A stretch of 35,356 bases of DNA from an uncultured Syntrophaceae bacterium (GTDB lineage: Bacteria; Desulfobacterota; SM23-61). Each line of letters opens with the position of its first letter. Position 1 is the first letter of the stretch. Shown one piece after another: positions 1 to 23,000 of this stretch. The translations under genes and the position numbers were made by a program. The notes below the pieces were generated by a model. It had not been told where the DNA came from, searched no databases, and saw only the letters and a program-made list of their open reading frames with translations. The stretch lies in NCBI GenBank assembly GCA_964537885.1, contig CAZIDC010000001.1:1-35356 (forward strand), written 5' to 3'.

Positions 1-901
1 CCCGGTCTAAAGCTTCATCCCAGGAAGCCGGCCGAAATTTTTCTCCTTCTTTGACTAAAGGCTCGGTCAGCCGGTCCGGGCTGTGGATATAATCAAACCC
101 GAACCTCCCCTTTACGCACGTCCAGCCTTTATTAATTCCCTGATCCTTGTCCGAAGTGGCTTTGAGGACCCGGTTGTCCTTAACATTCAGGACCAGCGTG
201 CATCCAACCCCGCAATAAGAACAGATGGTCGGAACTTTTTTCAATTCCCAATCCCTTCCCTCAAAGCGCCCCGCTTTCGGGCTCAAAGCGCCTACCGGAC
301 AGACGCTGACGCAGTTGCCGCAAAACACGCAGGGGGTTTCCGCCAGGGAGTGGTCGAAGGAAGCCGCGATCTTGGTGCCGAATCCCCGCTTGGAGTAGTC
401 CACGGCCTCGCAGTATTGGACTTCGTGGCAGACGGTAACGCACCGGCCGCAAAGGATGCACTTGTTGTAATCCCTCTCGAAGAATGGATTGGAAAAACGC
501 AGGGGATAGTGGTGCGTTTCTCCCTGAAAACGGGATTGGCGGATGCCGAATTCGTAGGCGTATTTTTCCAGCAGGCAGGTCCCGCTCTTTTCGCAGGTCA
601 TGCAGTCGTACGGATGATCGGAAAGCAAAAACTCGATCACTAACTTCCGGGCATCCTGTACCCGTTGGGTGTTCGTCCGCACGACCATCCTGTTGGCCAC
701 TGGGTAGGCACAGGAAGCGACCAGCGTCCTGGCTCCTTCGACTTCCACCACGCACAATCGGCAGGCCGTGGTGGGCGTAAGACCTTCCCAGTAGCAAAGA
801 TGGGGGATATGGATTCCCGCTTTTTGCGCGGCTTTAAAGAGGGTTGTGCCCTCTTCGGCCCTAATCTCCCGCCCGTCAATGGTCAATCGTATTTCATCCA
901 T
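1..901 (-). CDS. fdhA: Formate dehydrogenase alpha (catalytic) subunit, 5' part only. It has NuoG-like 2Fe-2S and 4Fe-4S domains followed by the start of the molybdopterin domain. The C-terminus lies beyond the window start.
   Basis: The ORF is absent from the supplied track because it is open at the window edge. My reverse translation from ATG 901-899 reads MDEIRLTIDGREIRAEEGTTLFKAAQKAGIHIPHLCYWEGLTPTTACRLCVVEVEG ... CILCGRCVTVC ... CVFCGNCVSVCPVGAL ... PTICSYCGVGCTLVLNVKDNRVLKATSDKDQGINKGWTCVKGRFGFDYIHSPDRL, with no stop down to position 1. The CxxCxxxC plus KGxxCxKG pattern is typical of molybdopterin formate dehydrogenases. A GAGGG Shine-Dalgarno lies upstream. Confidence 0.85.
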   Translation of the reverse strand, partial: MDEIRLTIDGREIRAEEGTTLFKAAQKAGIHIPHLCYWEGLTPTTACRLCVVEVEGARTLVASCAYPVANRMVVRTNTQRVQDARKLVIEFLLSDHPYDCMTCEKSGTCLLEKYAYEFGIRQSRFQGETHHYPLRFSNPFFERDYNKCILCGRCVTVCHEVQYCEAVDYSKRGFGTKIAASFDHSLAETPCVFCGNCVSVCPVGALSPKAGRFEGRDWELKKVPTICSYCGVGCTLVLNVKDNRVLKATSDKDQGINKGWTCVKGRFGFDYIHSPDRLTEPLVKEGEKFRPASWDEALDR

Positions 902-920
902 TTTTCCCTCTCATCTAACT

Positions 921-1049
921 TTCACCGCAGAGCACGCGGAGAACGCAGAGTTGAAAATGAAAAATTAAAACCCATGCGCTTGACGCTAACCGGTTATAGC
1001 CAATCTATCTATGTCCTTTCCCTGCGCCCTCAGCGCTCTCCGCGGTGAA
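921..1049. repeat. Inverted heptad-array element, family B (core CGCAGAG, termini TTCACCGC / GCGGTGAA)
   Basis: Left arm 921-950 is ttcaccgcagagcacgcggagaacgcagag. Right arm 1021-1049 is cctgcgccctcagcgctctccgcggtgaa. The centre is AT-rich. The element lies between the NuoF::GltD stop (1059) and the fdhA start (901). Confidence 0.85.
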
Positions 1050-1058
1050 ATAATGTTT

Positions 1059-4000
1059 TTAACGTTCCAAGTCGCACCGCAAACAGCGCTTCGCTTCGCG
1101 GACCGCCGTCTCTTCATCGAACCCCAGATTCACTTCTTCAAAAGTGCAGACCCGGCGGTCGACCGCCATCGCGGTCATTCTGGCCCGCGGTTTTACCGCC
1201 TCAGCTTCGGCTCCCTCTTCCCCGGTTTTGGGCACACTGGCCCGCAGCAGGGCTTGGTAAACCCGGTCTTGATAGAGGTCTTTCCCCCGCAAGTACCGAT
1301 CGATGGAAAGGGCCGCGCGATACCCGCTGGCCATGGCCTCCACGATCGTCGAGGGGCCGGTGACCACGTCACCGCCGGCAAAGACGCCGGGAATATGCAC
1401 AGCCAGGGTTTGCGGGTCCACCGCGAGGGTCGAGGCCTTGGTCGTCTTGAAGCCATCGTTCTGGGGAAGGCAGGACAAATCAGGGACATAACCGATGGCT
1501 GGGATAACCCCGTCCACCTCCATAAAAAATTCCGAGCCTTTAACCGGGACCGGGCGGCGTCTTCCGCTGGTATCGTAGGCTCCAAGTTCCATGCGCTGGC
1601 ATTCCAGGCCTTTGACCCTGCCGTTCTCCGTGATCACCCGGGTAGGAGCCATGAGGTAAAGAATCCTGATCTTCTCATGCTCGGCCTCCTCGATCTCTTC
1701 ATCATTAGCCGGCATCTCCTCCCGCGTTCGGCGGTAAATGATCGAAACCTCCTGCGCGCCCAAGCGCAGAGCCGTGCGGGCGGCGTCGATCGCCACGTTC
1801 CCCCCGCCGATGACCGCCACTTTCTTGCCCGCTTCCATTTTTTCGCCCAAATTTACCCGGCGCAAAAAATCGACTCCTGGCAAGACTCCCTGAGCATCTT
1901 CCCCGGGAATATTCATCTTCTGATTCAAATGGGCACCCATGGCTAAGAACACCGCCTTGTATCCCTGCCGGAAAAGGTCATCGATCGTAAAGTCCCGGCC
2001 AAGGGCTTTCCCGGTATTGATTTCCACGTTATGCTGGCAGATGAAGCGGATGTCATTCTCCAAAATCTCCCGGGGCAGCCGGTAATCCGGGATACCCACG
2101 GCGAGCATACCTCCGGCCACCGGCAGGGCTTCGAATATCGTAACCGGGTATCCCCGCCGCCCTAAATGATAAGCCGCATTCAATCCCGCCGGCCCGGCCC
2201 CCACCACAGCCACCCTTTCTGCTTTGGGCTTTTCCAGCAAAGTGGGAGGGGCCATTTTGCCCTGTTTACGTTCCCAATCAGCGGCAAATCTTTTCAGCGA
2301 CGAAATAGCGATGGGCTCATCGATCTCTCCCCGCTTGCACATGCCCTCGCAGGGGTGATTGCACACCCTCCCGCAAATTCCGGCCAAAGGCATGGTTAGC
2401 CGGATGAGGCTCAGAGCCTCCTCGTACCTCTCTTCGGAAATCAGGGCCGTGTAACCCACGGCATCGCAGCGCACCGGGCAGGTGTTTTCACAAGGGGCAA
2501 AGACCAGGGCTTCACAGGAGCCGGCCGGACAGTATTTATCCCGGATATGGGCTTCATACTCATTCCGGAAATGGTGAATGGTCGAGAGCACGGGGTTGGG
2601 ACAGGTCTGCCCCAGGCCACAAAGGGCGGAATCTTTTATAATTTGCCCGATTTCCAGGAGGAGTTCGATGTCTCCCTCCCGGCCTTGCCCTTTGGTTATG
2701 CGCGTCAGAATCTCCAGCATGCGTTTCGTGCCAATGCGGCAGGGAACGCATTTACCGCAGGATTCGTCCTGGGTGAAGTTCAGGAAGAAACGGGCAATAT
2801 CCACCATGCAGGTTTTTTCATCCATGACGATCATGCCGCCCGATCCCATCATCGAGCCAGCCTGGGTCAGGGATTCGTAGTCAATCGGCAGGTCCAGATA
2901 TTGAGAAGGCAGACATCCCCCTGAAGGTCCTCCCATCTGAGCTGCCTTGAAGCCACGGCCCCGGGGAATACCTCCGCCGATTTGATAGATGACCTCCCGC
3001 AGGGTTGTCCCCATGGGTACTTCCACCAGACCCGTGTTGTTGATCTTTCCAGTCAGGGAGAAAATCTTCGTGCCCTTGCTCCCCGCAGTTCCAATGGCCG
3101 CATAGGCCGCCGAACCTCCCAGGATGATGGAGCGGATGTTGGCATAAGTCTCCACGTTATTGATATTCGTGGGCTTACCCCAAAGACCTGCGACCGCTGG
3201 AAACGGCGGGCGCGCCCGGGGCATCCCCCTCTTGCCCTCGATGGAGGCCAAAAGAGCCGTCTCTTCTCCGCAAACGAAGGCCCCCGCTCCTTCTTTGATC
3301 TTGGCGTGGAAGCTGAATTCGGAGCCCAGAATGTTCTCCCCGATGAGGCCCAGCTTTTCGGCCTGATCGATGGCCATCTTTAGGTGCTGAACGGCCAAGG
3401 GGTATTCGGCCCGGACATATAAATAGCCGCTCTGAGAGCCGATGGCGTAAGCCGCGATGAGCATCCCCTCCAGGACCAGATGGGGATTTCCCTCCAGCAC
3501 GCTCCGGTCCATGAAAGCCCCGGGATCCCCTTCGTCAGCGTTGCAGACGATATACTTCACGTCCCCGGCCGAACCTCGGGTGAAGCGCCATTTCCTCCCA
3601 GTGGGGAACCCGGCCCCCCCTCTTCCGCGCAGCCCAGATTTTTCCACTTCGTCGATAACCTGTTCCGGCGTCATGGAGAAAAGGGCTTTGCTCAAGGCCG
3701 AATAACCCCCCCGGGCAAGGTAATCCCTGATCTCCGTCGGATCGATGCGGCCATTATCGCTGAAGACCGAGCGCATCTGGCCCTTATAAAAGGGGACATC
3801 ATGATCATAGACGACCACTTGACCGGTGGCGGGATCCGTGTAAAGCAGTCTCTGCACCAGCCGCCCACCAATGATGGTTTCCGAAACAACCTCCGCTATA
3901 TCTCCTAAGGCTACCTGTTGATAGAAAATTTCCTTGGGCTGGATGACGACCACGGGCCCCCGCTCGCAGAATCCGTGGCAACCCGTGCGCATTACATCCA

Positions 4001-4205
4001 CATTCCCCTCGAGGCCTTGCTTCCGAATTTCCTCGATAAAGGCCAAGCGAACCTCTTCGCCCCCCCAAGCCCGGCACCCCGTCCCGCCGCATATGGTCAC
4101 ACAGGTTTTATCAGGATCCCGCCCCTCAAGTATGGTTTCCCGGAGCGCGGTCAAGTCCTGCGCGGACTTCAGCTTCCCTTTCAACTTTTCTCCCCCTTCA
4201 GGCAT
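1059..4205 (-). CDS. Fusion protein. The N-terminus has a thioredoxin-like 2Fe-2S domain plus a NuoF/HndC-like NADH-FMN-4Fe4S module. The C-terminus has a GltD/NfnB-like NAD(P)H:FAD oxidoreductase module.
   Basis: 1048-aa ORF. The NuoF half carries CGGTGCRAWG, GRGGAGFPTGRKW and ESCGKCVPCRIG. The GltD-like half carries GICGRVCNHPCEGMC, VAVVGAGPAGLNAAYHL and VAVIGGGNVAIDAART. Its ATG at 4205 overlaps the upstream nuoE-like stop by 8 nt. Confidence 0.9.
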   Translation of the reverse strand: MPEGGEKLKGKLKSAQDLTALRETILEGRDPDKTCVTICGGTGCRAWGGEEVRLAFIEEIRKQGLEGNVDVMRTGCHGFCERGPVVVIQPKEIFYQQVALGDIAEVVSETIIGGRLVQRLLYTDPATGQVVVYDHDVPFYKGQMRSVFSDNGRIDPTEIRDYLARGGYSALSKALFSMTPEQVIDEVEKSGLRGRGGAGFPTGRKWRFTRGSAGDVKYIVCNADEGDPGAFMDRSVLEGNPHLVLEGMLIAAYAIGSQSGYLYVRAEYPLAVQHLKMAIDQAEKLGLIGENILGSEFSFHAKIKEGAGAFVCGEETALLASIEGKRGMPRARPPFPAVAGLWGKPTNINNVETYANIRSIILGGSAAYAAIGTAGSKGTKIFSLTGKINNTGLVEVPMGTTLREVIYQIGGGIPRGRGFKAAQMGGPSGGCLPSQYLDLPIDYESLTQAGSMMGSGGMIVMDEKTCMVDIARFFLNFTQDESCGKCVPCRIGTKRMLEILTRITKGQGREGDIELLLEIGQIIKDSALCGLGQTCPNPVLSTIHHFRNEYEAHIRDKYCPAGSCEALVFAPCENTCPVRCDAVGYTALISEERYEEALSLIRLTMPLAGICGRVCNHPCEGMCKRGEIDEPIAISSLKRFAADWERKQGKMAPPTLLEKPKAERVAVVGAGPAGLNAAYHLGRRGYPVTIFEALPVAGGMLAVGIPDYRLPREILENDIRFICQHNVEINTGKALGRDFTIDDLFRQGYKAVFLAMGAHLNQKMNIPGEDAQGVLPGVDFLRRVNLGEKMEAGKKVAVIGGGNVAIDAARTALRLGAQEVSIIYRRTREEMPANDEEIEEAEHEKIRILYLMAPTRVITENGRVKGLECQRMELGAYDTSGRRRPVPVKGSEFFMEVDGVIPAIGYVPDLSCLPQNDGFKTTKASTLAVDPQTLAVHIPGVFAGGDVVTGPSTIVEAMASGYRAALSIDRYLRGKDLYQDRVYQALLRASVPKTGEEGAEAEAVKPRARMTAMAVDRRVCTFEEVNLGFDEETAVREAKRCLRCDLER

Positions 4206-4662
4206 ATTGCCTTAATACTTTTTCCACTTTGGCCGGTGTCAATTTTCCATAATAATTTTTATCGACCAGAAGCACCGGGGACAGGGCGCAAGCCCCAAGA
4301 CAAGCCACGGTTTCAAACGTGAATTTGAAATCCGGGGTGGTCTCGTTTTCTTCTAGGCCCAGGAACTGCTGGGTCGCTTTCAAAATATTCTTCCCGCCCC
4401 GCACGTGGCAGGCCGTTCCCCGGCAGACCCGTACCGTATGCCGGCCCCGGGGAGTTAGGTAAAACTGGGCATAAAAGGTTATCACTCCATAAACCCGGCT
4501 TGTGGGAATTTTTAACCGTTTGCCGATATGTTTTAGAACCTCCTCTGGCAGATACCCGTAAATTCCCTGGGTTTCCTGGAGGATGGGGATGAGCGCGCCA
4601 TCCTGTCCCCGATAATGCTCCAAAACGGGCTCTAACTTTGCAAGATCCACTGGTTCCGGCAT
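4198..4662 (-). CDS. NuoE/HndA-like 2Fe-2S ferredoxin subunit (24-kDa-type)
   Basis: 154 aa. Cys pattern CRGTACHVRGG ... ETVACLGACALSP. AAGGAGG Shine-Dalgarno upstream of the ATG at 4662. Confidence 0.9.
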   Translation of the reverse strand: MPEPVDLAKLEPVLEHYRGQDGALIPILQETQGIYGYLPEEVLKHIGKRLKIPTSRVYGVITFYAQFYLTPRGRHTVRVCRGTACHVRGGKNILKATQQFLGLEENETTPDFKFTFETVACLGACALSPVLLVDKNYYGKLTPAKVEKVLRQYA

Positions 4663-4680
4663 CTTTCCTCCTTAAGAACA

Positions 4681-4768
4681 GCAATCAGCTGTCAGCGGTC
4701 AGCTTTCAGCAAAAAAATAATATGCCCATAGATTTTTTGGCGATCGCTGAATGCTGATTGCTGATCGC
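4681..4768. repeat. Inverted heptad-array element, family A (core TCAGC / GCTGA)
   Basis: Left arm is gcaaTCAGCtgTCAGCggTCAGCttTCAGC followed by an A7 run. Right arm follows a T6 run and reads gGCGATCGCTGAatGCTGAttGCTGAtcgc. It is followed by T7, which abuts the acsE stop. Confidence 0.9.
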
Positions 4769-4774
4769 TTTTTT

Positions 4775-5587
4775 TCATCCTCGGTTCCCTGTCTTCGGTT
4801 TCAACTTTTTTTCTGCTTCCTTAAGGAAATGATCCGAGTAGGGGTGGCGTTCGAGGATGACTTCCGCGGCGGCGGCGGCCTCCAGCAGACAGGGGTCGAG
4901 AATATCGGCGATAACCGTGTCGAGACCGCAGGCCATGGCCATGGTCAGGAAGGTCTGGTTGATCAACCTTCTTTGCTTCGCCCCTTGCGAACAGTTGCTC
5001 AGCCCCACGACAATATGAGGAGGATTTCTTTCCTCGGCAATTACCTGGATGGCCTCGAGGACGATCGGTCCCTCGGTCTGGGAAAATTTTAAGGGGAGGA
5101 GAACGGGATCGATAAACAGCCGGTCCCGGGAAACTCCGTATTCGTCGGCTGTGTCCATGATCCGTTTGGCGATGGCCTGGCGCCCCACGGCATGCGATGG
5201 AATCCCCTGTTCATCCATGGTCAGGCCAACAATAGAGGCTCTATACTTGACAGCCAGTTCCATGAATTTGGCTAATTTTTCTTTATCCCCCGTAGTGGAA
5301 TTGATCATGGATGGATTCTGACATACCTTCAGCCCGGCCTCGATCACATCCAGCCGCCGGCTGTCTACGGCGATGGGCGTGCTGACGATTTCCTGAACGG
5401 TCTGCACTAACCAGACCATGATCTCGGCTGGCTTTAACCAAGCGGTCCCCACATTGAGATCGATGTAAGAAGCTCCGGCATCCGCTTGTCTCCGGGCTAT
5501 ATTCTGGACCGCTTCCTTGTCCTTATCAGCGATGAATTTGCGAACCCCGGGCTGGAGGCCGTTGATTTTTTCCCCGATGAAGATCAT
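4775..5587 (-). CDS. acsE: Methyltetrahydrofolate:corrinoid/iron-sulfur protein methyltransferase (canonical MeTr)
   Basis: Pterin-binding (DHPS-like) barrel. MIFIGEKING ... YIDLNVG ... MINST ... VVGLSNCSQG ... LINQTFLTMAMACGLDTVIAD closely recalls Moorella MeTr as I remember it. The ORF track starts at 5602, where the ATG forms an ATGA overlap with the cooC stop. The homology-like start MIFIGEK is the ATG at 5587. The choice between them is unresolved. Confidence 0.88.
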   Translation of the reverse strand: MIFIGEKINGLQPGVRKFIADKDKEAVQNIARRQADAGASYIDLNVGTAWLKPAEIMVWLVQTVQEIVSTPIAVDSRRLDVIEAGLKVCQNPSMINSTTGDKEKLAKFMELAVKYRASIVGLTMDEQGIPSHAVGRQAIAKRIMDTADEYGVSRDRLFIDPVLLPLKFSQTEGPIVLEAIQVIAEERNPPHIVVGLSNCSQGAKQRRLINQTFLTMAMACGLDTVIADILDPCLLEAAAAAEVILERHPYSDHFLKEAEKKLKPKTGNRG

Positions 5588-5598
5588 GCCTTCAGCCC

Positions 5599-6360
5599 TC
5601 ATTCCCCGATTGCATCTACAATTTTTTCTATGGCTTTTAAAAAATCCGGATTCTCGCCGTAGGGAGGTTTTCCCTCCAGGTCGGCTTCAACTACCCTGAG
5701 ATCATAAGGGAGAAATCCTAAAAATGGGAACCCCGTCATTCTTGATAGAAGGAACTGGCGGTCGGACTCCCCGCGGATTTTGTTTCCCACCAGGCCAATA
5801 TTATGCAGCCCAATGTCTCCCGCCAACTGGCGGATCTTTTGGGCAACCTCCAGACTCCTCTGGCCGGGTTCGACCACTACAATGAGTTTATCTACGGCTT
5901 TGGCCGTTGCCCGTCCCAGATGTTCAACCCCGGCCTCCATGTCGAGAATGACCACTTCCCCCCGGCCTAAAAGAAGATGCGCAACCAGGGTTTTGACCAT
6001 TACGTTTTCCGGGCAAACGCACCCCCCTCCACCTTTCTGGACCGTACCCATGACCATCAGGCGAATTCCATCCTTTTCAAGGGTGTATTTCTCCGGCAGG
6101 TCATCAACCCTCGGATTAATCTTGAAAAAACCCCCCATCGAACCTGATTTGGCTTCCGTACGCTCCTCAATCAGCTCCTTCATCTCGGATATGGGCGTCA
6201 GTCGTTGATCTTTGGGAAAACCGAGGGCTAAAGCAAGGTTGCTCGCCGGATCCGCATCAATGGCCAGTACTTTCTGCCCTCGCAAAGCCAGCACACGGGC
6301 CAGCCCTGCCACAATCGTGGTCTTCCCCACCCCGCCTTTGCCAGTAACTGCCAGTTTCAT
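5599..6360 (-). CDS. cooC: CooC/AcsF-type nickel-insertion ATPase (copy 1)
   Basis: 253 aa. Deviant Walker A GKGGVGKTT, CxC nickel motif GGGGCVCPEN, GGAGA Shine-Dalgarno. Confidence 0.9.
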   Translation of the reverse strand: MKLAVTGKGGVGKTTIVAGLARVLALRGQKVLAIDADPASNLALALGFPKDQRLTPISEMKELIEERTEAKSGSMGGFFKINPRVDDLPEKYTLEKDGIRLMVMGTVQKGGGGCVCPENVMVKTLVAHLLLGRGEVVILDMEAGVEHLGRATAKAVDKLIVVVEPGQRSLEVAQKIRQLAGDIGLHNIGLVGNKIRGESDRQFLLSRMTGFPFLGFLPYDLRVVEADLEGKPPYGENPDFLKAIEKIVDAIGE

Positions 6361-6376
6361 GAATTCTCCAGGCTTT

Positions 6377-6435
6377 GGGCGATAGGCAATGGGCGATAAA
6401 TTCTCCCTTTTCCCTATTGCCTCTGGCCTATCGCC
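6377..6435. repeat. Inverted heptad-array element, family F (core GGCGATA / GGCAATn)
   Basis: Left arm is gGGCGATAGGCAATGGGCGATA. Right arm is ccctattgcctctggcctatcgcc, whose reverse complement is GGCGATAGGCCAGAGGCAATAGGG. The right arm covers the DUF3786 stop codon. Confidence 0.8.
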
Positions 6436-7054
6436 TGTTTTTTATTAATTTCCACACCACCGTCTCCGCCAGGATGACGATGTCTTCCACCGGCAAATAT
6501 TCGCTTACCGAAGCGTCAAAGAGAAAGTTGCCATCGGCCGGGAACTCTTCATCTCCCCTCCATAAAATCAGGCCAAGGGGGACAAAAGGAAACGCCGGGA
6601 CTTTGATCCCGACATCTCCGAAACCGAGAGGTTCTCCCCCCAATTCTTCAGCCGCAGACTTCAAGGCATCCGGATTTCCCCCAAAAAAATTTACCAAAGG
6701 CCCTTGGCAGCGTTTCAGGAAAACGGGATGATAAAAAGCCCCCCCGGGAACTTCGGCGAAAGATACCCATTGCCCAGCCGCAGGGGCTCCGGCGGCCTTT
6801 GTCAAATAATGAAGAACCAGAATTTCTTCCCGGAGAGGAATCGGCCCCTGCCCGTTCTCGGGAGCAATCGATCCGCTGGGGAAGGAAATTAAAATTTCAT
6901 GCCCTAAATACTTCAGCGCAACTCGGGATTCCCCGCCGGGCCCCGGCTCATACCTTCCTCCTCCGCGGGCAGCCCGGTCCCGTAAGTCCGCTTTCGCGAG
7001 ACCCTCCACCGCCATCTGCCGGGCCAACTGGTAATTTTCCTGTTTCGGCAACAT
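6428..7054 (-). CDS. Conserved hypothetical protein, probably the DUF3786 family that accompanies acs clusters
   Basis: 208-aa ORF with protein-like composition, co-directional inside the acs block. The family assignment is from memory of DUF3786 proteins, not from a search. There is no obvious Shine-Dalgarno before ATG 7054. Its last two codons and stop lie inside a repeat arm. Confidence 0.6.
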   Translation of the reverse strand: MLPKQENYQLARQMAVEGLAKADLRDRAARGGGRYEPGPGGESRVALKYLGHEILISFPSGSIAPENGQGPIPLREEILVLHYLTKAAGAPAAGQWVSFAEVPGGAFYHPVFLKRCQGPLVNFFGGNPDALKSAAEELGGEPLGFGDVGIKVPAFPFVPLGLILWRGDEEFPADGNFLFDASVSEYLPVEDIVILAETVVWKLIKNRR

Positions 7055-7058
7055 AAAA

Positions 7059-7164
7059 AGCTATCAGCTTTCAGCCGTCAGCTTTTAGCTAAAACAAAAG
7101 CAAACTATAAGTCTTAATTGCTTTGGTCTCTGCTGATTGCTAATCGCTGACCGCTGATGGCTAT
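7059..7164. repeat. Inverted heptad-array element, family A
   Basis: Left arm is agctaTCAGCttTCAGCcgTCAGCttttagc. Right arm is tGCTGAttGCTAAtcGCTGAccGCTGAtggct. The element ends 3 nt before the TAA stop of the 7167-8048 gene. Confidence 0.9.
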
Positions 7165-7166
7165 CT

Positions 7167-8048
7167 TTACAGTTCCAACCACGAATGGGAATACAGGCTT
7201 TTGCCCAGAAGAACCTTGGTGGTTTTGAAATACTCGATTTCCTTGGGGGTCAGAGTTTTTACATCCGGCTCTTCTCCGTCCATCATCCGGTGGACCAGGC
7301 TGACGATGGCGGACATTCCTCCTTTGGCAAGCATTAGCAATTCCTCATCGTAAGCATCGACGATCGCGGAGTATAGGCCATACTTCATCAGCATTATCAA
7401 ATAGGCTCGGTTTAAAACCGGGCGCAGGTTGGCCGGGGCGCCGTTGGAGATGTTGGACAACCCCACGATGGATTTGGCTTCGGGAGCAATGTCCTTGAGC
7501 ATGGACATGAACTCCAGGCAGGAGAGGACCTGATTGATTTCCACGCTAACCGGGCTGACGATGGGATCGATCCAGATATCCTCGGTGGGGATCCCTAAGT
7601 TATTGGCCTGATAGATGAAATCCACGGCAAGGGACGCTCTCTCGTTGGCGTCCCGCGGCATCCCCTCTTTTCCCCAGAGGAGGCCGATGACGTGGGCATT
7701 ATAATTTTTGGCCATGGGCAACACTTTTTCCAGACGTTCGGGCTGGAGGGATACGGAATTGATCAAAGCCTTCCCTTTATGGACCTTCAGGCCAGCCTCC
7801 ATGGCCGCGGGATTAGTAGTATCCAGGGAAAGGGGTTTGCTCACGACTCCCTGGACCTCCTTCACCAACCAATCCATTACTTCTTCGCCGGCCTTGCGGG
7901 ATGGGCCGATGTTCAGGTCTAAGTAGTCGATGCCCACCTTTTCCTCGTGCTTGGCCATCTCGACGATGGGCTCGGCCCGCCGCTCTTTCATGGCTGGCCC
8001 GATCGTCTTGGACATGATGTTGATGTTCTCACCGACGCAAACAACCAT
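7167..8048 (-). CDS. Divergent pterin-binding methyltransferase paralog (AcsE/MtrH-like)
   Basis: 293 aa. VGENINIMSK ... DYLDLNIGP ... LINSVS ... IVGLSNISNGAP matches the pterin-binding barrel but is clearly diverged from the 4775-5587 copy, and it has an extra C-terminal tail. AAGGAGG Shine-Dalgarno. Confidence 0.8.
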   Translation of the reverse strand: MVVCVGENINIMSKTIGPAMKERRAEPIVEMAKHEEKVGIDYLDLNIGPSRKAGEEVMDWLVKEVQGVVSKPLSLDTTNPAAMEAGLKVHKGKALINSVSLQPERLEKVLPMAKNYNAHVIGLLWGKEGMPRDANERASLAVDFIYQANNLGIPTEDIWIDPIVSPVSVEINQVLSCLEFMSMLKDIAPEAKSIVGLSNISNGAPANLRPVLNRAYLIMLMKYGLYSAIVDAYDEELLMLAKGGMSAIVSLVHRMMDGEEPDVKTLTPKEIEYFKTTKVLLGKSLYSHSWLEL

Positions 8049-8064
8049 CTCTTTCCTCCTTTAA

Positions 8065-8160
8065 AAGCAGCATACAGCAACCAGCGATCGGCAATCAGCC
8101 CAAATAAGAAAGATTATTTAATTGCTTAAGCTGAAAGCTGATTGCTGAAAGCTGACCGCT
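8065..8160. repeat. Inverted heptad-array element, family A (left arm more degenerate, CAGC core)
   Basis: Left arm is aagcagcatacagcaaccagcgatcggcaatcagcc. Right arm is ttgcttaaGCTGAaaGCTGAttGCTGAaaGCTGAccgct. Confidence 0.85.
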
Positions 8161-8164
8161 ATTT

Positions 8165-9517
8165 TTATTCCGGTTTCCACATCTTCAGGAAGGCCGGGAT
8201 GTGGCCGGCTTCCCTCGGCCCGATAGAGATTTTCCAATCGGGTAATTCTTCCTCCAGCTCCCCGCTGATAACGGCTGCATAACCGGGGATGATCAGCTTG
8301 CGGTGTTTTACCTTATCGGCGATCCCGCACTTTTTCACGAAGGGAGCAATGAGGTCGGCGCTGAACTTGCCCGCCGCCCATGCGGTCATGACCGACAATC
8401 CTTCCGTGTCCTTGACTAAAAGCCAGCAGGGTACACGGCTGCCTTCGATCTCTCCCGAAACGATGAAATAAGTCAATGAGAAGTTGGAGGTAATCAGAAC
8501 GGGGGAGTTCTCGCCCGGCCCGCCAATTTCGTATATTCCTTCGCTCGTGGCCATCGGCCGCTGCGGGTCGGTGTAGAGGTTCATCCGCTCCAGCAGGATC
8601 GGGAAAAGGCTATGGCCATCGATGTCCGAAAGAACCACGAGTCCGCCGTATTTGGCCACGAAGAGAGATGCCAGGAGCGCCTCTTTCATCGGATCGTCGG
8701 TCATCTCGCAGGGGAAGGTAATCGTCGGGAAACCTAAAGGGCGGAACTTTTTAACCAGTGCCGCCCGCCGGATGACAATCTGATCCTCCAGGGCCTTGCG
8801 GGTCGTTCGCGCCCCGGAATCCAGCACCAAGTCTTTCAGACCGGCCGCGGTCAATTTGTTGGTCAGCTCGACCAGCTCGTCCAGGCTTTTCCCCTTGACG
8901 GCGAGAGGCGCGGCAATCTCTTTGGCTAACTGGGCCATGGGCTCGGCATTCGCTTGGGTCGCGGCATAAAGCAGCGGTTTGCGGTCGGCGCAGGCTCTGG
9001 CCCCGGCCCCAAGGACCTTGGGGTCTTCGCTCATTAAAACCATCCCTTTGCCGTTAACCTTTTCTTTCACTTTTTTCACAAAGGCTTCGAATGCGGCCGG
9101 GTCCCCCGATTCTCCCTTGAGGGCCACGAGGTCGGCTTGCAGCGTCAGCCCTACCCGCTCGAACTTCAATTCCCTCAGTTTCTTCAGGCGTCCCTCTACT
9201 TCGGCATCGCTCATCTTGTCCGAAACAAGAACCGCAATCCCCGTAGGGTTGACGAAACGTTTTTCGTGGCGGAACATGACGGTCTCGCCGCCGATCTTCA
9301 ATGCCTTATCTCCAGTGCCAATGGTCAAGGGGCGAATGGGGGGCGCGGAAGCCTCTTCCAATGCCGCTTTGGCCTCTTCGGATACATGGGGACACGCGGA
9401 TAGCTCCGCCTGCCCGGCGGCTAACTTCATGGCAAAGGCGAGGCAGGTGGGCACGCCGCACTCTCCGCAGTTGGTCTTCGGAAGCTTTTTGAATATCTCA
9501 ATTCCTGTCAGGGCCAT
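8165..9517 (-). CDS. acsC: Corrinoid iron-sulfur protein, large subunit
   Basis: 450 aa. N-terminal 4Fe-4S motif CGECGVPTCLAFAMKL ... ACPH. The size matches AcsC. AAGGAG Shine-Dalgarno. Confidence 0.93.
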   Translation of the reverse strand: MALTGIEIFKKLPKTNCGECGVPTCLAFAMKLAAGQAELSACPHVSEEAKAALEEASAPPIRPLTIGTGDKALKIGGETVMFRHEKRFVNPTGIAVLVSDKMSDAEVEGRLKKLRELKFERVGLTLQADLVALKGESGDPAAFEAFVKKVKEKVNGKGMVLMSEDPKVLGAGARACADRKPLLYAATQANAEPMAQLAKEIAAPLAVKGKSLDELVELTNKLTAAGLKDLVLDSGARTTRKALEDQIVIRRAALVKKFRPLGFPTITFPCEMTDDPMKEALLASLFVAKYGGLVVLSDIDGHSLFPILLERMNLYTDPQRPMATSEGIYEIGGPGENSPVLITSNFSLTYFIVSGEIEGSRVPCWLLVKDTEGLSVMTAWAAGKFSADLIAPFVKKCGIADKVKHRKLIIPGYAAVISGELEEELPDWKISIGPREAGHIPAFLKMWKPE

Positions 9518-18835: not shown

Positions 18836-19500
18836 ATCTTCAAATCCTCCCGGACCCGTTTCCGCGGGCCCCCGTCGCGGCTCGTGGTCCAATCTTTGAT
18901 GGGCAGGACAATCTCCAACTTTTCCAGCTGTCCCAGTTCCTTGAGACGGTCATAAATCAATTGCCAGCCGCAGTCGATTTCCGGATCAATCTCGCACTTG
19001 CCGCGTTTCGACCCGCCGCAGGGTCCATTGAAAAGACTCTTCGAACACCGGGCCACCGGGCAGATGCCCCCCGTCCGGTCCAGGACGCAGTTCCCGCAAG
19101 CCTGGCAGCGCTCAGTCCAAACCCCCTGTTCTTCGGTAACGCCGATGAACTGGGTGTCCACTCCCGGCAAAACCGGGTGCTTGCGGAACTTTTCAGCCAC
19201 AAACTGGATGCCCGCTCCGCAGGCCAAGGAGAGAATGGCCTGATAACCATCGGCATACGGCCGCATCGGTTCGAGATATTCCGTGTCGCACTGCCGCTCC
19301 AGAGTTACCTCCTTAATCTCGAGCGATTTCCCCTGGGTCTGGCGAGCCAGGCGCAGGGCCGAGGAAAGAATGCCTACTTCTTTTTCCCCCCCGGCCGAAC
19401 AGACGGTTACACAACCTTTGCATCCGACGACTAAAATCTTGTCGTAGGGTTCAATCATGGCCAGGATTTCTTTAATGGGTTTCCCTTCCGCAATAATCAT
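18832..19500 (-). CDS. metV: MetV, the Cys-rich MTHFR-associated subunit
   Basis: 222 aa. CKGCVTVC and CQACGNCVLDRTGGICPVARCSKSLFNGPCGGS. AGGAGG Shine-Dalgarno. Confidence 0.88.
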   Translation of the reverse strand: MIIAEGKPIKEILAMIEPYDKILVVGCKGCVTVCSAGGEKEVGILSSALRLARQTQGKSLEIKEVTLERQCDTEYLEPMRPYADGYQAILSLACGAGIQFVAEKFRKHPVLPGVDTQFIGVTEEQGVWTERCQACGNCVLDRTGGICPVARCSKSLFNGPCGGSKRGKCEIDPEIDCGWQLIYDRLKELGQLEKLEIVLPIKDWTTSRDGGPRKRVREDLKI

Positions 19501-19617: not shown

Positions 19618-20026
19618 ATTTTTTGCTCGGGCTGGGCCCCAGTTGGCGGATCTTTTCAGTCATCTCTCGGGCCACTTCTGCAAAGCGCGGTCCCATGGCT
19701 GCGGACATGTTATACATCTCCAGCCGGTCTCCACCAATCCCGGCATCCTCCAGGATGCGCTTGGCCATAGCCACCCGTTTCTTGGCCCGCAGGTTGCCGG
19801 TGAGGAAGTGGCAGTCGCCCTCCAGGCAACCGGCGACATAAACGCCGTCGGCCCCTTTTTCAAACGCTTCCAGCAGAAAACGGACGTCGATCTTGCCCGT
19901 GCAGGGAATCCGCACGATGCGGATGTTCGCCGGATACTGCAAACGCATGGTTCCGGCAAGATCCGCGGCCGTGTAAGCGCAAAAATGGCAACAAAAAGCG
20001 ATGATCGTCGGCTCGAATTTTTCCAT
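19565..20026 (-). CDS. mvhD: MvhD-like 2Fe-2S electron-transfer subunit
   Basis: CCHFCAY ... CTGK ... GCLEGDCHF. The ATG at 20026 shares one nt with the hdrL stop (TGATG). The last ~20 codons are encoded by a repeat arm. Confidence 0.88.
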   Translation of the reverse strand: MEKFEPTIIAFCCHFCAYTAADLAGTMRLQYPANIRIVRIPCTGKIDVRFLLEAFEKGADGVYVAGCLEGDCHFLTGNLRAKKRVAMAKRILEDAGIGGDRLEMYNMSAAMGPRFAEVAREMTEKIRQLGPSPSKKYAERIAHSALRKEEQRA

Positions 20027-23000
20027 CAAGCGGCCTCCCCTTTCAGCGCATCGGCCGGAATATCAAAAAGAACATCACACTTGGCCATGATCTGCTCATC
20101 GGTGAAATGTTGGAGTGTAATCGCTTTCCCCGGGCATTCCGCGGCACAGATGCCGCAGCCATGGCACTTGGCGATTTCGATCTCGGCTACGCCGTCGGCG
20201 TTGATCACGGGAACGTTGTAAGGACAAGCGCGCACGCAGGTCAGGCAGGCGGCACACTTTTCCGGGTCCACGACCGAGACCACCCCGCCTACGTAGATCT
20301 GGTCCTTGGCCAGGACCGTGCAGGCCCGGGATACAGCGGCCAACGCCTGGGAGATACTCTCCTCGACCATTTTCGGCGAGTGGGCCACCCCGCAGAGGTA
20401 GATGCCCTCGGAAGCAAAGTCCACGGGCCTGAGCTTCATGTGAGCTTCCAGGAAAAAGCCGTCGGCGGTTCGGGGCACCTTGAGCATGCTGGCCAGTTTC
20501 GCGGTGTCCGCGGCCACGGTAGCCGCGGATAAAATCAGAAGGTCGGGAGCAAAAGAAATGTTTTCCCGCAGGACGGGATTGTACAAGAAGACCTCCAATT
20601 TTCCGTCCTGGATCCGAACCTCAGGTTTTTTCTCCTCTTCATACCGCAGGAAGAGCACGCCGGCCTTACGCGCCCGGGCGTAATGTTCCTCCAACATGCT
20701 GTACATCCGCATATCCCGGTATAGGATGACCACCCGCGCTTTGGGGTTCAGGGCCTTGATCGTCAAGGCGTTCTTTACGGCCTCAGCGCAACACACCCGG
20801 CTGCAATAAGGCCGCTCTTCATTCCGCGACCCGACGCATTGGATCATGACCACTTCTTTCAAATCGCCAGCCTTTTTCCCATCGGTGGCCATGAGCCTCT
20901 CCAGTTCCAACTGGGTTAAAATTCTGCTGTCCTCTCCGTAGAGGTATTCTTTGGGTTTGAGCTCTTCCCCCCCGGTGGCCACGATGGTAACGCCATGTTC
21001 CAGCTCCCGGGGAAGCATCTTCGCCCCGACCATCAGGCTGGTTTTAAAGTTGCCCACGTAACCCGAAAAATCAGTGACGACGGCATTGGTGAAAACCTGG
21101 ATCTGGGGATGCCGGGTCACTCGGGTGATCATTTCTTTTAGGTATTGGGGCACGTCTTTCCCGTCCAGCGTTCGGTAAAGATGGCGCAGATTGCCGCCCA
21201 GCTCCCCTTCCTTCTCCACCAAGAAAGTTTCAAACCCTTGCTCGGCCAACCCGAGAGCCGCAGTCATCCCGGATAATCCTCCTCCAATCACTAAGCCTTT
21301 CTTAATCACCCCTTTGGTCAACTCTTCCAGGGGGCGGATCAGACGGGCGTTGGCCACGGCCATGCGCACCAAGTCCCGGGCTTTCGAGGTTGCTTCTTCT
21401 TTCTGGTTCATATGGACCCAGGAACACTGATCCCGGATGTTGGCCATTTCGAAGAGGTATTGGTTCAGACTGGCTTCCCGGATCGTTTCCCGAAAGAGAG
21501 GCTCATGGGTGCGCGGGGAGCAGGAAGCCACCACCACCCGGTTCAACTTGTGTTCCTCGATGGCTTTCTTGATCTTTTCTTGCGTATCCTGGGAGCAGGT
21601 GTATAGATTTTCTTCCGCAAAGACCACGTTCCCCAGAGTGGCCGCATATTCTTTGACGGAGGGGACGTCGACTACTCCGGCGATGTTATTCCCGCAGCGG
21701 CAGACAAAGACCCCGATCCTTGGGGATTCTTCCTTCACATCTTTTTGTTCCGGGTATTCCTTACGAATGACCATCGTTCCCCGGACCTCTGAGAGAATCT
21801 CCGAGGCGGCGGCGGCGGCTCCGCTGGCCTGGGCTACTGTCTCGGGAATGTCCTTCGGGCCCTGGAAAACCCCGCAAACGAAAACCCCCGGTTGGGAAGT
21901 GGCCAGCGGCGCAAAAATATCGGTCTTGGCAAAGCCATAGGCGTCAAGGTCGATTCCCAACTTTTTCCCCAGCTCTTTGGTGGAGGCCGAAGGAGTCATC
22001 CCCACCGAGAGGACCACTAAGTCGAATTCCTCTTCCTGAATCTCCCCCGCTTCATTTACGTAGGAGATCAAAAGGTTTTTGGTCTGCGGGTCCTCTGCCA
22101 CCCGGGAAATCATGCAGCGCACGTAGCGCACGCCGTATTCTTTTTTAGCCCGTTCGTAGTAGGCATCGAACCCTTTGCCATAGGCCCGGAGGTCGATGAA
22201 AAAGATCGTCGGCTCAATTTCCTTGTTATGCTCCTTGGCAATGATCGCTTCCTTGGTCGCGTACATGCAGCAAACCGCCGAGCAATATTTATGGTCCTGG
22301 TCGCGGCTGCCCACGCATTGTAAAAAAGCCAACTTCCGCGGTGTTTTCCCGTCCGAGGGGCGATTCACGTGCCCCATCGTCGGGCCGGAGGCCGAAAGCA
22401 ATCGCTCGAACTGCAGAGCGTTTACTACGTTGGGGTACCGTCCCCAGCCATACTCCGGCGACAATTGGGCGTTGTAAACTTCGTAGCCGGGCGCCAGGAT
22501 CAGGGAACCCACCGGCACTTCTTCCAGCCGTTCCACCATGTTGTGATCAATCGCTCCCAAGCCACATTTGTAATAACAGCTCAAACACTCCGAGCATACT
22601 CCGCAGGCCAGGCACCGGGCCGCCTCGGCCTGGGCTTCTTCATCGGTATACCCTAAATTCACCTCAGCAAACGATCGGGTTCGTTGGACGACCCCCATGG
22701 TTTGCACGTGTACCCGGGGAGTTGCGCGGATTTCGCCCAAGGCCATCCGCTCCTTGATTTCCTCCATGGTCAACTTGACAACGGGCAACTCCGGTTTGGC
22801 CTCGGGCTCCAATTCGCCACCCCGCAGATAGCGCTGGATGCTGGCTGCCGCCTTATGCCCTGCGGCCACCGCTTCGATGACGAAAGCGGTCCCGCTGATG
22901 GCATCCCCGGCAGCAAACACGCCGGGGCGGGTGGTGGCGTAGGTGTTGGGATTGACGGCTACGGTTTCCTGGCGGGTTACGCCTACTCCGGTGCTTTCAG

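Follow-up and report, generated by a model that had tools for sequence, protein, structure and literature searches.

A predicted NADPH module in place of the ferredoxin-directed domain of a bifurcating-type NuoF subunit encoded beside a formate dehydrogenase

How much energy acetogens, syntrophs and acetate oxidisers have to spend depends on the electron donor for the reduction of CO2 to formate, thermodynamically the hardest step of the Wood-Ljungdahl pathway. The known donors are ferredoxin, H2 (HDCR), NADPH (Moorella) and NADH together with ferredoxin (the bifurcating Hyl/Hyt types). In the solved Bfu enzymes, the C-terminal B3/B4 domain of BfuB provides the ferredoxin site and is the path taken by the low-potential electrons. 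Among the closest described systems are the bifurcating HydABC, NiFe-HydABCSL and Fdh-Bfu enzymes (A. mobile 7t2r, T. kivui 8a6t, A. woodii 7q4v, T. maritima 7p5h; G. acidurici HylABC-FdhF2) and StnABC/NfnABC (S. ovata 8oh5, C. saccharolyticus 9bov/9bp5, T. sibiricus 9n5u), in which a GltD-type module lies inside the NuoG-like BfuA (~102-567) and BfuB retains the B3/B4 ferredoxin domain. In StnC, formate activity was not detected and the FDH-like domain is catalytically dead. Further ones are NfnAB/NfnSL (T. maritima 4ylf, P. furiosus 5jca), where the FAD itself bifurcates, the non-bifurcating NAD-dependent FdsABG (R. capsulatus 6tg9, C. necator 6vw7), and the NADP-dependent tungsten-selenium formate dehydrogenase of Moorella thermoacetica (alpha = sfrA2+fdhF3, beta = sfrB2), known to us from the literature as a Wood-Ljungdahl Sec-FDH fed by a GltD-type NADPH flavoprotein.

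The window, that is, the whole stretch of 35,356 nucleotides analysed here, carries at 1059-4205 on the minus strand a NuoF(HydB/BfuB)::GltD fusion gene, which is a single uninterrupted ORF of 1048 aa plus stop codon. The sequence-only reading had described a complete NuoF/HndC-type module fused to a GltD/NfnB-like one with a boundary at about 580/585; the open frame, Pfam and NCBIfam all agree with this description, and the boundary found at residues 567/571 (window about 2493-2510) is compatible with it. Residues 1-567 constitute a complete bifurcating-type HydB/BfuB (2Fe-2S_thioredx 31-108; Complex1_51K 187-357, E 3.9e-45; SLBB 382-430; NADH_4Fe-4S 469-553, E 8e-35) and residues 571-1048 a GltD/NfnB-type module with two [4Fe-4S] clusters, FAD and NADPH predicted (Fer4_20 563-649, E 2e-22; Pyr_redox_2 664-961, E 1.3e-36), the NCBIfam models dividing the protein in the same way (nuoF_fam 156-554, E 1e-149; GltD-type models 562-1045, E 1e-145). 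In 32 compared sequences with identities of 48-87%, none of the FMN/NADH, Fe-S, FAD and NADPH motifs varies. The AF2 monomer reaches a pLDDT of 84 and a pTM of 0.65, with only 64-70 pLDDT at the junction, and a Foldseek search with this monomer found no PDB chain spanning both halves (TMq <=0.52).

The NuoF half begins with a thioredoxin-like [2Fe-2S] domain (residues 31-108; 3882-4115, minus strand; Bfu cluster 'B5'), assigned by Pfam and by alignment with HydB, whose ligands Cys39, 44, 76 and 80 are all kept in the clade of the window, Cys39 and Cys44 being missing from many GltB-linked fusions. It is followed by the FMN/NADH-binding core with the SLBB domain (residues 187-430; 2916-3647, minus strand; PF01512) and by the [4Fe-4S] domain of cluster N3/'B1' (residues 469-553; 2547-2801, minus strand; PF10589, E 8e-35), whose ligands Cys483, 486, 489 and 529 are conserved in 39/39 loci; the GRGGAGFPTG and CxxCxxC...C motifs are invariant. 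Bifurcating-type beta subunits are recognised by A/E-x-M near the NADH site, a Phe near FMN and GGPSG, and non-bifurcating ones by T/S-x-K/S/A, a Tyr and no GGPSG (Losey et al., PMC7311640). All three bifurcating-type signatures are present in the fusion, where DPGAFMDR, GAGAFVCGEE and GGPSG are invariant. The NuoF half is closest to structurally proven bifurcating BfuB (7t2r_B, 8a6t_B, 7q4v_B, 9bov_B and 8oh5_B); it scores 795-796 bits against the bifurcating HydB 7t2r_B and only ~410-412 bits against FdsB. The distinction that the sequence-only reading had drawn from FdsABG-type NAD-FDH and from HDCR is supported.

The junction (residues 552-571; 2493-2552, minus strand) was defined by the HydB alignments and a junction alignment. 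It contains the Zn-site ('B2') motif AHIRDKYCPAGSCEAL; AHIRDKYCPAGSC matches the same motif of 7t2r_B, 8a6t_B and 7q4v_B; Cys559 and Cys564 of this region are conserved in 39/39 loci. The alignments to 7t2r_B, 8a6t_B, 7q4v_B and 9bov_B end at the Zn motif, beyond which an ordinary HydB runs on into its C-terminal 2x[4Fe-4S] domain. The fusion does not: its GltD module starts 7 residues after the motif, and every fusion examined in the junction alignment lacks the B3/B4 domain, with the 8 Cys and two CxxCxxCxxxCP motifs that ordinary HydB has there. By these alignments, the GltD module replaces the C-terminal B3/B4 domain of BfuB and is not simply appended to it.

The GltD half opens with a GltD/DPD-type 2x[4Fe-4S] domain (residues 572-649; 2259-2492, minus strand; PF14691, E 2e-22), which also aligns with the inserts of C. 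saccharolyticus NfnA and S. ovata StnC. Its cluster ligands are Cys572, 576, 611, 615, 619 and 623, the set being completed by Cys1041 and Cys1044 (conserved in 38/39 loci) of the C-terminal tail FEEVNLGF...EAKRCLRCDLE (residues 1010-1047; 1065-1178, minus strand). This tail, which phmmer aligns as a second domain with 4ylf_B 10-43 and 5jca_L 5-48, corresponds to the N-terminus of NfnB/NfnL, and hence reveals a circular permutation. Between the two lie the FAD and NADPH Rossmann domains (residues 664-961; 1323-2216, minus strand; PF07992, E 1.3e-36), with the FAD motif VAVVGAGPAGL...FEA...GG and the NADPH motif VIGGGNVAIDAART...IIYRRTREEMPA. G669/G671/G674, G800-802/A805 and Y824/R825/R826 (GxGxxA plus YRR) are invariant in the 32 sequences, and the region aligns with the NADPH-binding NfnA, StnC and NfnL. 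The module runs collinearly with its NADPH counterparts in C. saccharolyticus NfnA (9bov_A 102-567), T. sibiricus NfnA (9n5u_A 104-594) and S. ovata StnC (8oh5_C 102-566); by these alignments it belongs to the StnC/NfnA-insert subtype, which is circularly permuted relative to the NfnB of NfnAB.

With StnABC/NfnABC the locus shares NuoE-like and NuoG/FDH-like subunits, a bifurcating-type NuoF-like subunit (687-693 bits) and the same permuted FAD/NADPH module (368-424 bits, collinear over ~470 residues), but the module stands at the C-terminus of BfuB in the place of the B3/B4 domain. With the bifurcating Hyd and Fdh-Bfu enzymes it shares the gene order C-B-A, a type-1 BfuA with its catalytic domain fused and the layout of the BfuB core from the N-terminal [2Fe-2S] to the Zn motif (Foldseek 54-67% identity over the aligned parts, TM to target 0.85-0.96), whereas an NADPH/FAD site stands where these enzymes have the C-terminal 2x[4Fe-4S] domain and with it their canonical ferredoxin port. 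The large subunit of NfnAB/NfnSL is homologous to the GltD half (327-331 bits) but unpermuted, and no gene for an NfnS partner (PyrK-like [2Fe-2S]/FAD/NADH) was seen among the ORFs of the window. FdsABG has the same layout of NuoE, NuoF and NuoG-fused FDH, but its similarity is far lower (365-412 bits) and FdsB possesses neither the bifurcating-type signatures nor a GltD module. Finally, the beta subunits of Moorella FDH and Geobacter SfrAB, compared by their description in the literature, consist of the NuoF C-terminal [4Fe-4S] and GltD only, without FMN/NADH domain, N-terminal [2Fe-2S] or NuoE partner; the fusion holds a whole NuoF and hence is not of this type.

The two neighbouring genes would supply the remaining subunits. 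Upstream, a NuoE/HydC/BfuC-like subunit of 154 aa (4198-4662, minus strand; PF01257, E 2.5e-52; NCBIfam HoxE/NuoE/FDH-gamma models) contains the four cysteines of the C1 [2Fe-2S] site (CRGTAC...CLGAC), and its stop overlaps the start of the fusion by 8 nt, an overlap that is identical in the relative L001. Downstream, the neighbour is a NuoG-fused FdhA (BfuA type 1), as had been proposed, of which Pfam and NCBIfam recognise the first 300 aa (2-901, minus strand) before the contig ends. This fragment comprises Fer2_4, NADH-G_4Fe-4S_3, Fer4_Nqo3 and Molybdop_Fe4S4, that is, a [2Fe-2S], a His-ligated [4Fe-4S], two further [4Fe-4S] and the molybdopterin-type [4Fe-4S] cluster, and Pfam detects no insert after its [2Fe-2S] domain. 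The spacer of 157 nt that separates it from the fusion (902-1058) harbours an imperfect 29-nt inverted repeat (920-948 and 1022-1050) and no promoter or terminator scoring above chance.

The catalytic part of FdhA was approached through its orthologues and through C459, the only contig of the MAG that overlaps the fdhA of the window. C459 nearly matches the last ~80 nt of the fragment in the window, its residues 271-892 are 72-89% identical to the FdhA of the orthologues, and it has a TGA at codon 350; no contig with a private continuation was found in the MAG, and C459 itself resembles a chimera or the collapse of a repeat. The selenocysteine and SECIS element that the sequence-only reading had suggested looking for occur in the orthologues and in C459 (U350-H351, with a SECIS-like hairpin), while the copy of the window ends with the contig. 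Since the orthologues contain HCARL-U-HSSTVAGLA and a full molybdopterin domain, in contrast to the dead domain of StnC, and selB is present in the genome, the FdhA partner is probably a selenoprotein, although the window's own copy is cut. Neither fdhD nor moaA was seen at the locus, which the contig leaves inside fdhA. The NuoE-like, fusion and FdhA genes close a complete Wood-Ljungdahl cluster; their synteny is kept in all 78-89% orthologues, and Wood-Ljungdahl genes lie upstream of them in L004, L005, L036, L108 and L109. In the MAG, which is 93% complete, rnfC was not found, which is consistent with a ferredoxin-sparing first step, and dsrA, as a mark of sulfate reducers, was not found above its cut-off in the genome.

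The fusion is far from rare. At the 90% identity level, at least 120 clusters with this architecture were recovered from independent JGI, ENA, NCBI and Logan assemblies, all with the same Pfam content, 70-87% identical and nearly all of 1007-1049 aa, a few being shorter partial sequences. It is present in 110/401 sampled genomes of the phylum (~27%), and full-length copies occur in MAGs of many phyla, which answers the question of how widespread it is. A literature search, covering few subscription journals, found no description or biochemical study of it. Related fusions adjoin HydA, MetVF or a GltB-like partner, and because of these associations NuoF::GltD appears to be a reusable NAD(H)/NADP(H) core. 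The junction is identical in all the fusions compared, yet a single origin is unsupported, as the tree of the N-terminal half mixes fused and plain HydB and calls for at least 9 changes; recombination within the conserved core is the likely process. The FDH-linked fusions form two well-supported clades, one in this phylum and one in Bacteroidota, on an unresolved backbone.

The model we propose, to which we would give an even chance of being right, is a three-subunit cytoplasmic Bfu-type FDH/CO2 reductase coupling NADH and NADPH without a canonical ferredoxin site, in which we infer from the architecture, motifs, conservation and gene context which substrates are used, that they are coupled and that ferredoxin is absent. 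The NuoE-like subunit, the fusion and the NuoG-fused FdhA would form the last module of the Wood-Ljungdahl cluster. The NuoF part would keep the 'flavobicluster' core (FMN with the NAD(H) site, B1 [4Fe-4S], Zn site and N-terminal [2Fe-2S]), C1 being contributed by the NuoE-like partner, and the place of the ferredoxin-directed domain would be occupied by a GltD-type wire leading from two [4Fe-4S] clusters to FAD and the NADP(H) site. Three couples would thereby be joined, the pterin serving CO2/formate, FMN serving NAD(H) and FAD serving NADP(H), which would stand in for ferredoxin as the partner of lower potential. For CO2 fixation, NADH and NADPH would together reduce 2 CO2 to 2 formate (confurcation), and in the oxidative direction formate would reduce NAD+ and NADP+. 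Probably, then, the fusion ties CO2 reduction to both nucleotides. The cofactor inventory anticipated by the sequence-only reading, two pyridine-nucleotide sites plus FMN and FAD attached to a CO2 reductase, is borne out by the predicted domains and their invariant motifs; its interpretation as a putative Nfn-like or bifurcating unit with NADP+/ferredoxin is partly supported, and ferredoxin chemistry has become less likely than it implied because the B3/B4 domain is replaced.

Several considerations count against this model. Cellular NADPH is only ~100 mV more negative than NADH, so that such a 'mini-bifurcation' yields little energy and can operate only while formate is low. By analogy with NfnSL, the GltD clusters could still dock ferredoxin. 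The confidence of the AF2 model is only moderate at the junction, and for the catalytic part of FdhA, which lies off this contig, the model relies on C459 and the orthologues. A MetVF partner, at about -200 mV, is at odds with the scheme of a mid-potential third substrate unless the bifurcated couple changes. It is conceivable, though unlikely, that the enzyme is instead an uncoupled dual-cofactor FDH, where NADH at FMN and NADPH at FAD are independent entries or exits of one Fe-S wire to the pterin and whichever nucleotide is available is used. All the cofactors could indeed sit on one connected chain, in the M. thermoacetica FDH, for which the literature gives no hint of bifurcation, NADPH enters by an SfrB-type (GltD-like) beta subunit, and SfrB-like proteins of 650-673 aa align with fusion residues 425-1044 across the same 'NuoF C-terminal [4Fe-4S] then GltD' junction (45% identity for that of L001). 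However, an enzyme with two uncoupled sites would act as a futile transhydrogenase and short-circuit the pools of NADH and NADPH, and the NuoF half, with its 796 bits to bifurcating HydB against ~412 to FdsB, keeps all the bifurcating-type signatures and the B5 and Zn sites that are missing from non-bifurcating FDH beta subunits.

More improbable still appears an Nfn-like enzyme that uses ferredoxin docked on the GltD clusters or on those of NuoE or FdhA, i.e. an FDH combined with an NADH-dependent Fd:NADP oxidoreductase (for example, 2 NADPH + NAD+ + CO2 or Fd(ox) -> 2 NADP+ + NADH + formate or Fd(red)), which is how the sequence-only reading had interpreted the complex. In its components the complex matches StnABC/NfnABC, which performs such chemistry and whose genes in S. 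ovata likewise stand at the end of a Wood-Ljungdahl cluster; NfnSL is the next-best match to the C-terminal half, and the two [4Fe-4S] clusters of its GltD-like subunit lead to ferredoxin. In the fusion, however, the junction alignment suggests that these clusters, tethered 7 residues from the Zn site, would be directed into the core and not towards the surface. As for an artificial fusion by frameshift or mis-assembly near 2450-2500, or a decayed GltD half without functional FAD/NAD(P)H motifs, both raised by the sequence-only reading, the MAG is split into 755 contigs and this one stops within the adjacent gene, but the independent clusters, the genomes of this and other phyla, the common junction and the invariant cofactor motifs of both halves reject an artefact and make this explanation negligible.

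Returning to the coupled NADH/NADPH model, a more general version may be put forward tentatively, with considerable doubt: NuoE plus NuoF::GltD would be a ferredoxin-independent bifurcation module between the nucleotide pools, NADH serving as the high- and NADPH as the low-potential partner, that forms here an obligately coupled NADH+NADPH-confurcating CO2 reductase and exists in sister versions for H2 (HydA) and methylene-THF (MetVF).

In conclusion, what is new here is the start of GltD 7 residues past the Zn motif, the replacement of the B3/B4 domain and the permuted StnC/NfnA subtype of the module. The locus suggests a further solution to the donor problem, a bifurcating-type core with its ferredoxin branch swapped for NADPH, in a design that is common, being carried by about a quarter of the sampled genomes of the phylum and by MAGs of many others, and that current metabolic reconstructions label simply 'NuoF'. 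The fusion is a natural experiment: can the [B1-FMN-C1] flavobicluster work with a partner other than ferredoxin? Shared among FDH, hydrogenase, MTHFR and a GltB-like enzyme, the module would be a general redox adaptor. If ferredoxin-independent bifurcation is true, these uncultured anaerobes would store energy in the disequilibrium between NADPH and NADH, not in reduced ferredoxin.

The placement of Pfam and NCBIfam domains bears out the union of NuoF with a GltD/NfnB-like module that the sequence-only reading had proposed for the 1048-aa protein encoded at 1059-4205 of the minus strand, coordinates included. A thioredoxin-like [2Fe-2S] domain (residues 31-108), the NuoF FMN/NADH domain (187-357), an SLBB domain (382-430) and the NuoF [4Fe-4S] domain (469-553) are followed by a DPD/GltD-type two-cluster domain (563-649) and by FAD/NAD(P)H Rossmann domains (664-961). 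Among 5.8 billion proteins searched, at least 120 clusters at the 90% identity level share this Pfam content, nearly all of them 1007-1049 aa long and 70-87% identical, and about a dozen more full-length fusion clusters appear at the 50% level; the clusters at the 90% level stem from JGI, ENA, NCBI and Logan assemblies. Across 32 aligned sequences with identities as low as 48%, every cofactor motif in either half is invariant. Within the limits of a comparison, the architecture shared by the relatives and these invariant motifs rule out that a frameshift or mis-join at 2450-2500 created the fusion, and the feared loss of functional motifs in the C-terminal half is not seen: its FAD motif, its GxGxxA motif and YRR at the NADPH site are all retained in the 32 sequences. 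The AF2 model of the fusion has an overall pLDDT of 84, falling to 64-70 at the junction, and a pTM of 0.65; a structure search with this model found no PDB chain spanning both halves.

The N half belongs with the β subunits of the electron-bifurcating BfuABC (Bfu) family. It scores 796 bits against the NiFe-HydABCSL subunit 7t2r_B and aligns end to end with HydB of T. kivui and A. woodii, NfnB of C. saccharolyticus and T. sibiricus and StnB of S. ovata, whereas the β subunits of non-bifurcating formate dehydrogenases (FDH) are much less similar (365-412 bits). Signatures of the DPGAFMDR, GAGAFVCGEE and GGPSG types have been proposed to separate bifurcating from non-bifurcating β subunits (PMC7311640), and all three are present. 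The cysteines of two clusters, four for the N-terminal [2Fe-2S] (B5) and those of B1, are present as well, and so is the motif AHIRDKYCPAGSCEAL. This motif, which aligns with the conserved one directly ahead of the C-terminal domain in solved HydB/NfnB structures, is taken to be the Zn (B2) site, and all alignments of the fusion to solved HydB end there.

What follows the Zn motif differs between ordinary HydB and the fusions. In ordinary HydB, including three paralogues of the window's genome, two CxxCxxCxxxCP motifs form the C-terminal domain with clusters B3/B4; cryo-EM studies of NfnABC assign to B3/B4 the transport of the low-potential electron away from the mobile C1 cluster. In all fusions, the GltD cluster domain opens with (A/S)PC(E/Q)xxCP, 7 residues past the second Zn-site cysteine. 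Since B3/B4 constitute the low-potential branch and GltD stands at that very position, the fusion appears to have exchanged the ferredoxin branch for two [4Fe-4S] clusters, FAD and NADP(H). A third state of this position occurs in HydB-like proteins of Dehalococcoidales MAGs (loci L043-L059; 558 aa in L043), which stop right past the Zn motif and carry neither the ferredoxin-like domain nor GltD. In Desulfosarcina and relatives (L064, L065, L072, L075, L078-L080), a NuoF-like half has, about 830-940 nt further on and equally oriented, a distant GltD-like part (31-32% identity) behind it. Either a longer fusion interrupted by an extra domain or a pair of separate genes may explain the arrangement; in L078, the one locus whose reading frame was looked at, the frame has stops.

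For about 470 residues, the C half runs collinear with the NADPH insert of the A subunits NfnA of C. saccharolyticus (424 bits), NfnA of T. sibiricus and StnC of S. ovata, and shares with these inserts a circular permutation relative to the NfnB/NfnL subunit of NfnAB: the N-terminal FEEV.LGY...EA.RCLQC of NfnL has its counterpart, two of the eight cluster cysteines included, at the extreme C-terminus of the fusion. In the Bfu survey paper and in the Stn papers, such a module is described in the A subunit only. SfrB-like proteins of 650-673 aa, in which neither the FMN domain nor the Zn cysteines are present, align with residues 425-1044 through an identical junction; for M. thermoacetica, published annotation assigns the β subunit of its classical NADPH-dependent FDH to an sfrB-type gene of this kind.

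The ORFs of the window form a complete Wood-Ljungdahl cluster, and all the long ones save a plus-strand ORF of 157 aa (18961-19434; no Pfam match) lie on the minus strand. They include fhs, folD, hdrC-like and hdrB-like genes, mvhD, metF, RACo, two cooC, acsD, CODH, acsB, acsC, two pterin-binding methyltransferase genes and a DUF3786 gene. The NuoE-like gene (4198-4662), third from the end of the cluster, overlaps the start of the fusion by 8 nt, as in one relative, and the fusion is followed by fdhA, which encodes the NuoG-fused FdhA. The 157-nt spacer before fdhA (902-1058) contains an imperfect 29-nt inverted repeat (920-948/1022-1050, 79% complementary), probably one of the cluster's intergenic palindromic elements. 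Between the hdrCB-like genes and mvhD-metF lies the gene of a 1496-aa HdrA-like protein (20026-24516), with its own GltD/NfnB-type module (Fer4_20, 166-242; Pyr_redox_2, 259-553) that shares 45% identity with the fusion's C half; proteins like it, 1478-1495 aa long, occur widely (P0179, P0256, P0264). With a GltD module in both proteins, the FDH and MTHFR/Hdr redox modules each carry an NADPH-type flavin module.

The contig ends within fdhA (2-901), leaving its first 300 codons and thus the Fe-S N-terminus only. The final 80 nt or so match C459, a 3075-bp contig of the same genome, with 2 mismatches followed by 55 identical bases, the near-identity (window 1-87) starting at about codon 273. 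A full FdhA is encoded on C459, behind the last part of a conventional HydB C-terminal domain. Identity to FdhA of the fusion-bearing orthologues is only 57-59% over its first 270 residues but 72-89% (mostly 79-89%) over residues 271-892, the latter about level with the window's own N-terminus (76-84%). Most likely, two fdhA copies with a common 3' part were collapsed by the assembler, or C459 is chimeric, and in both cases the 3' part of C459 stands for the missing remainder; gene conversion would be another account. Contig C349, where NuoE and HydB run off the end, probably lies ahead of C459. Selenocysteine, suggested as a feature to look for, is indicated by a TGA at codon 350 in C459 and in all fdhA orthologues of the window's phylum (HCARL-U-HSSTVAGLA), where the conserved hairpin GUCGCC-GGUCU-GGCGAU follows this context; the window's own fdhA is truncated upstream of that codon. 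The genome contains selB, and the Bacteroidota FdhA have Cys at this position.

Full-length fusions occur in MAGs labelled Thermodesulfobacteriota, Syntrophorhabdales, Syntrophaceae, Aminicenantes, Planctomycetota, Gemmatimonadota, Bacteroidota, Ignavibacteriota, Calditrichota, Elusimicrobiota and others, and an even sample of the window's phylum has at least one in 110 of 401 genomes and 73 of 255 genera. The orthologues, 78-89% identical to the N half, keep the NuoE-fusion-FdhA order without exception, and at five loci (L004, L005, L036, L108, L109) they share with the window upstream genes for the pterin methyltransferase, cooC or acsC; these orthologues are rare, being found in that sample in G003, G006, G011, G226 and the window's genome. 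The remaining fusions (45-65% identical) have as partners a short 2Fe-2S/dicluster protein with a GltB-type FMN subunit, the [FeFe]-hydrogenase HydA, MetV and MetF, other FdhA-like or NuoG-like proteins, or none. The fusion tree places FDH-linked members in two strongly supported clades (the window's phylum and Bacteroidota) on a poorly supported backbone. In the tree of the N halves, the MetVF-linked clade and that of the window are sisters, and fused and plain HydB are interleaved, yet the junction is common to all fusions, which suggests recombination in the conserved core.

The MetVF operon (NuoE, NuoF::GltD, MetV PF12225, MetF PF02219; L092:783-5528 in G010, of the window's family, also L090, L091, L094 and L096) is devoid of a NuoG-like subunit and, with this same NAD(H)/NADP(H) core driving it, is a candidate methylene-THF reductase. 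On the 830-kb ENA contig L001 of a relative (374-8969), the NuoE-fusion-FdhA genes adjoin a nuo cluster (nuoA, B, C, D, a 673-aa SfrB-like protein consisting of the NuoF C-terminal [4Fe-4S] domain and GltD, an 877-aa NuoG/molybdopterin-like protein, nuoH, nuoI) in which NuoE and FMN-type NuoF are absent; it could possibly encode an NADPH-fed complex I. The window's genome (contigs C10, C206, C349, C325 and C647) has three more NuoE/HydB sets whose C-terminal domains are ordinary, that of C10 adjoining another FdhA-like gene, a stand-alone GltB-like FMN gene (C647) and at least eight GltD paralogues. Could the one on C325, beside an FdhA-like gene, form with it an SfrAB-like or Moorella-like pair?

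By its sequence, the complex has a complete bifurcating-type [B1-FMN-C1] core, no canonical ferredoxin domain and three substrate ports: one at the pterin, one for NAD(H) at the FMN and one for NADP(H) at the FAD. In the model that we propose, NADP(H) would stand in for ferredoxin. In cells, NADPH exceeds NADH in reducing power by about 100 mV. At low formate, maintained for example through Fhs or a syntrophic partner, the CO2/formate couple would lie between the two nucleotide couples, so that a coupled reaction, NADH + NADPH + 2 CO2 <-> NAD+ + NADP+ + 2 formate, is plausible. The same ports would also suit an uncoupled FDH using NADH and NADPH, which we consider rather unlikely, as such an enzyme would level both nucleotide pools. 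More doubtful still seems an enzyme of the Nfn type in which ferredoxin remains a substrate, bound at a different site.

No description of a NuoF/HydB::GltD fusion was found in the literature searched. The FDH-linked, Wood-Ljungdahl-embedded, selenocysteine fusion is a new form inside Bfu-family FDH, not a new category. Neither rnfC nor dsrA was found in the MAG, which consists of 755 contigs and is 93% complete. If the coupled reaction with NADH and NADPH is true, the reduction of CO2 to formate would spare ferredoxin.
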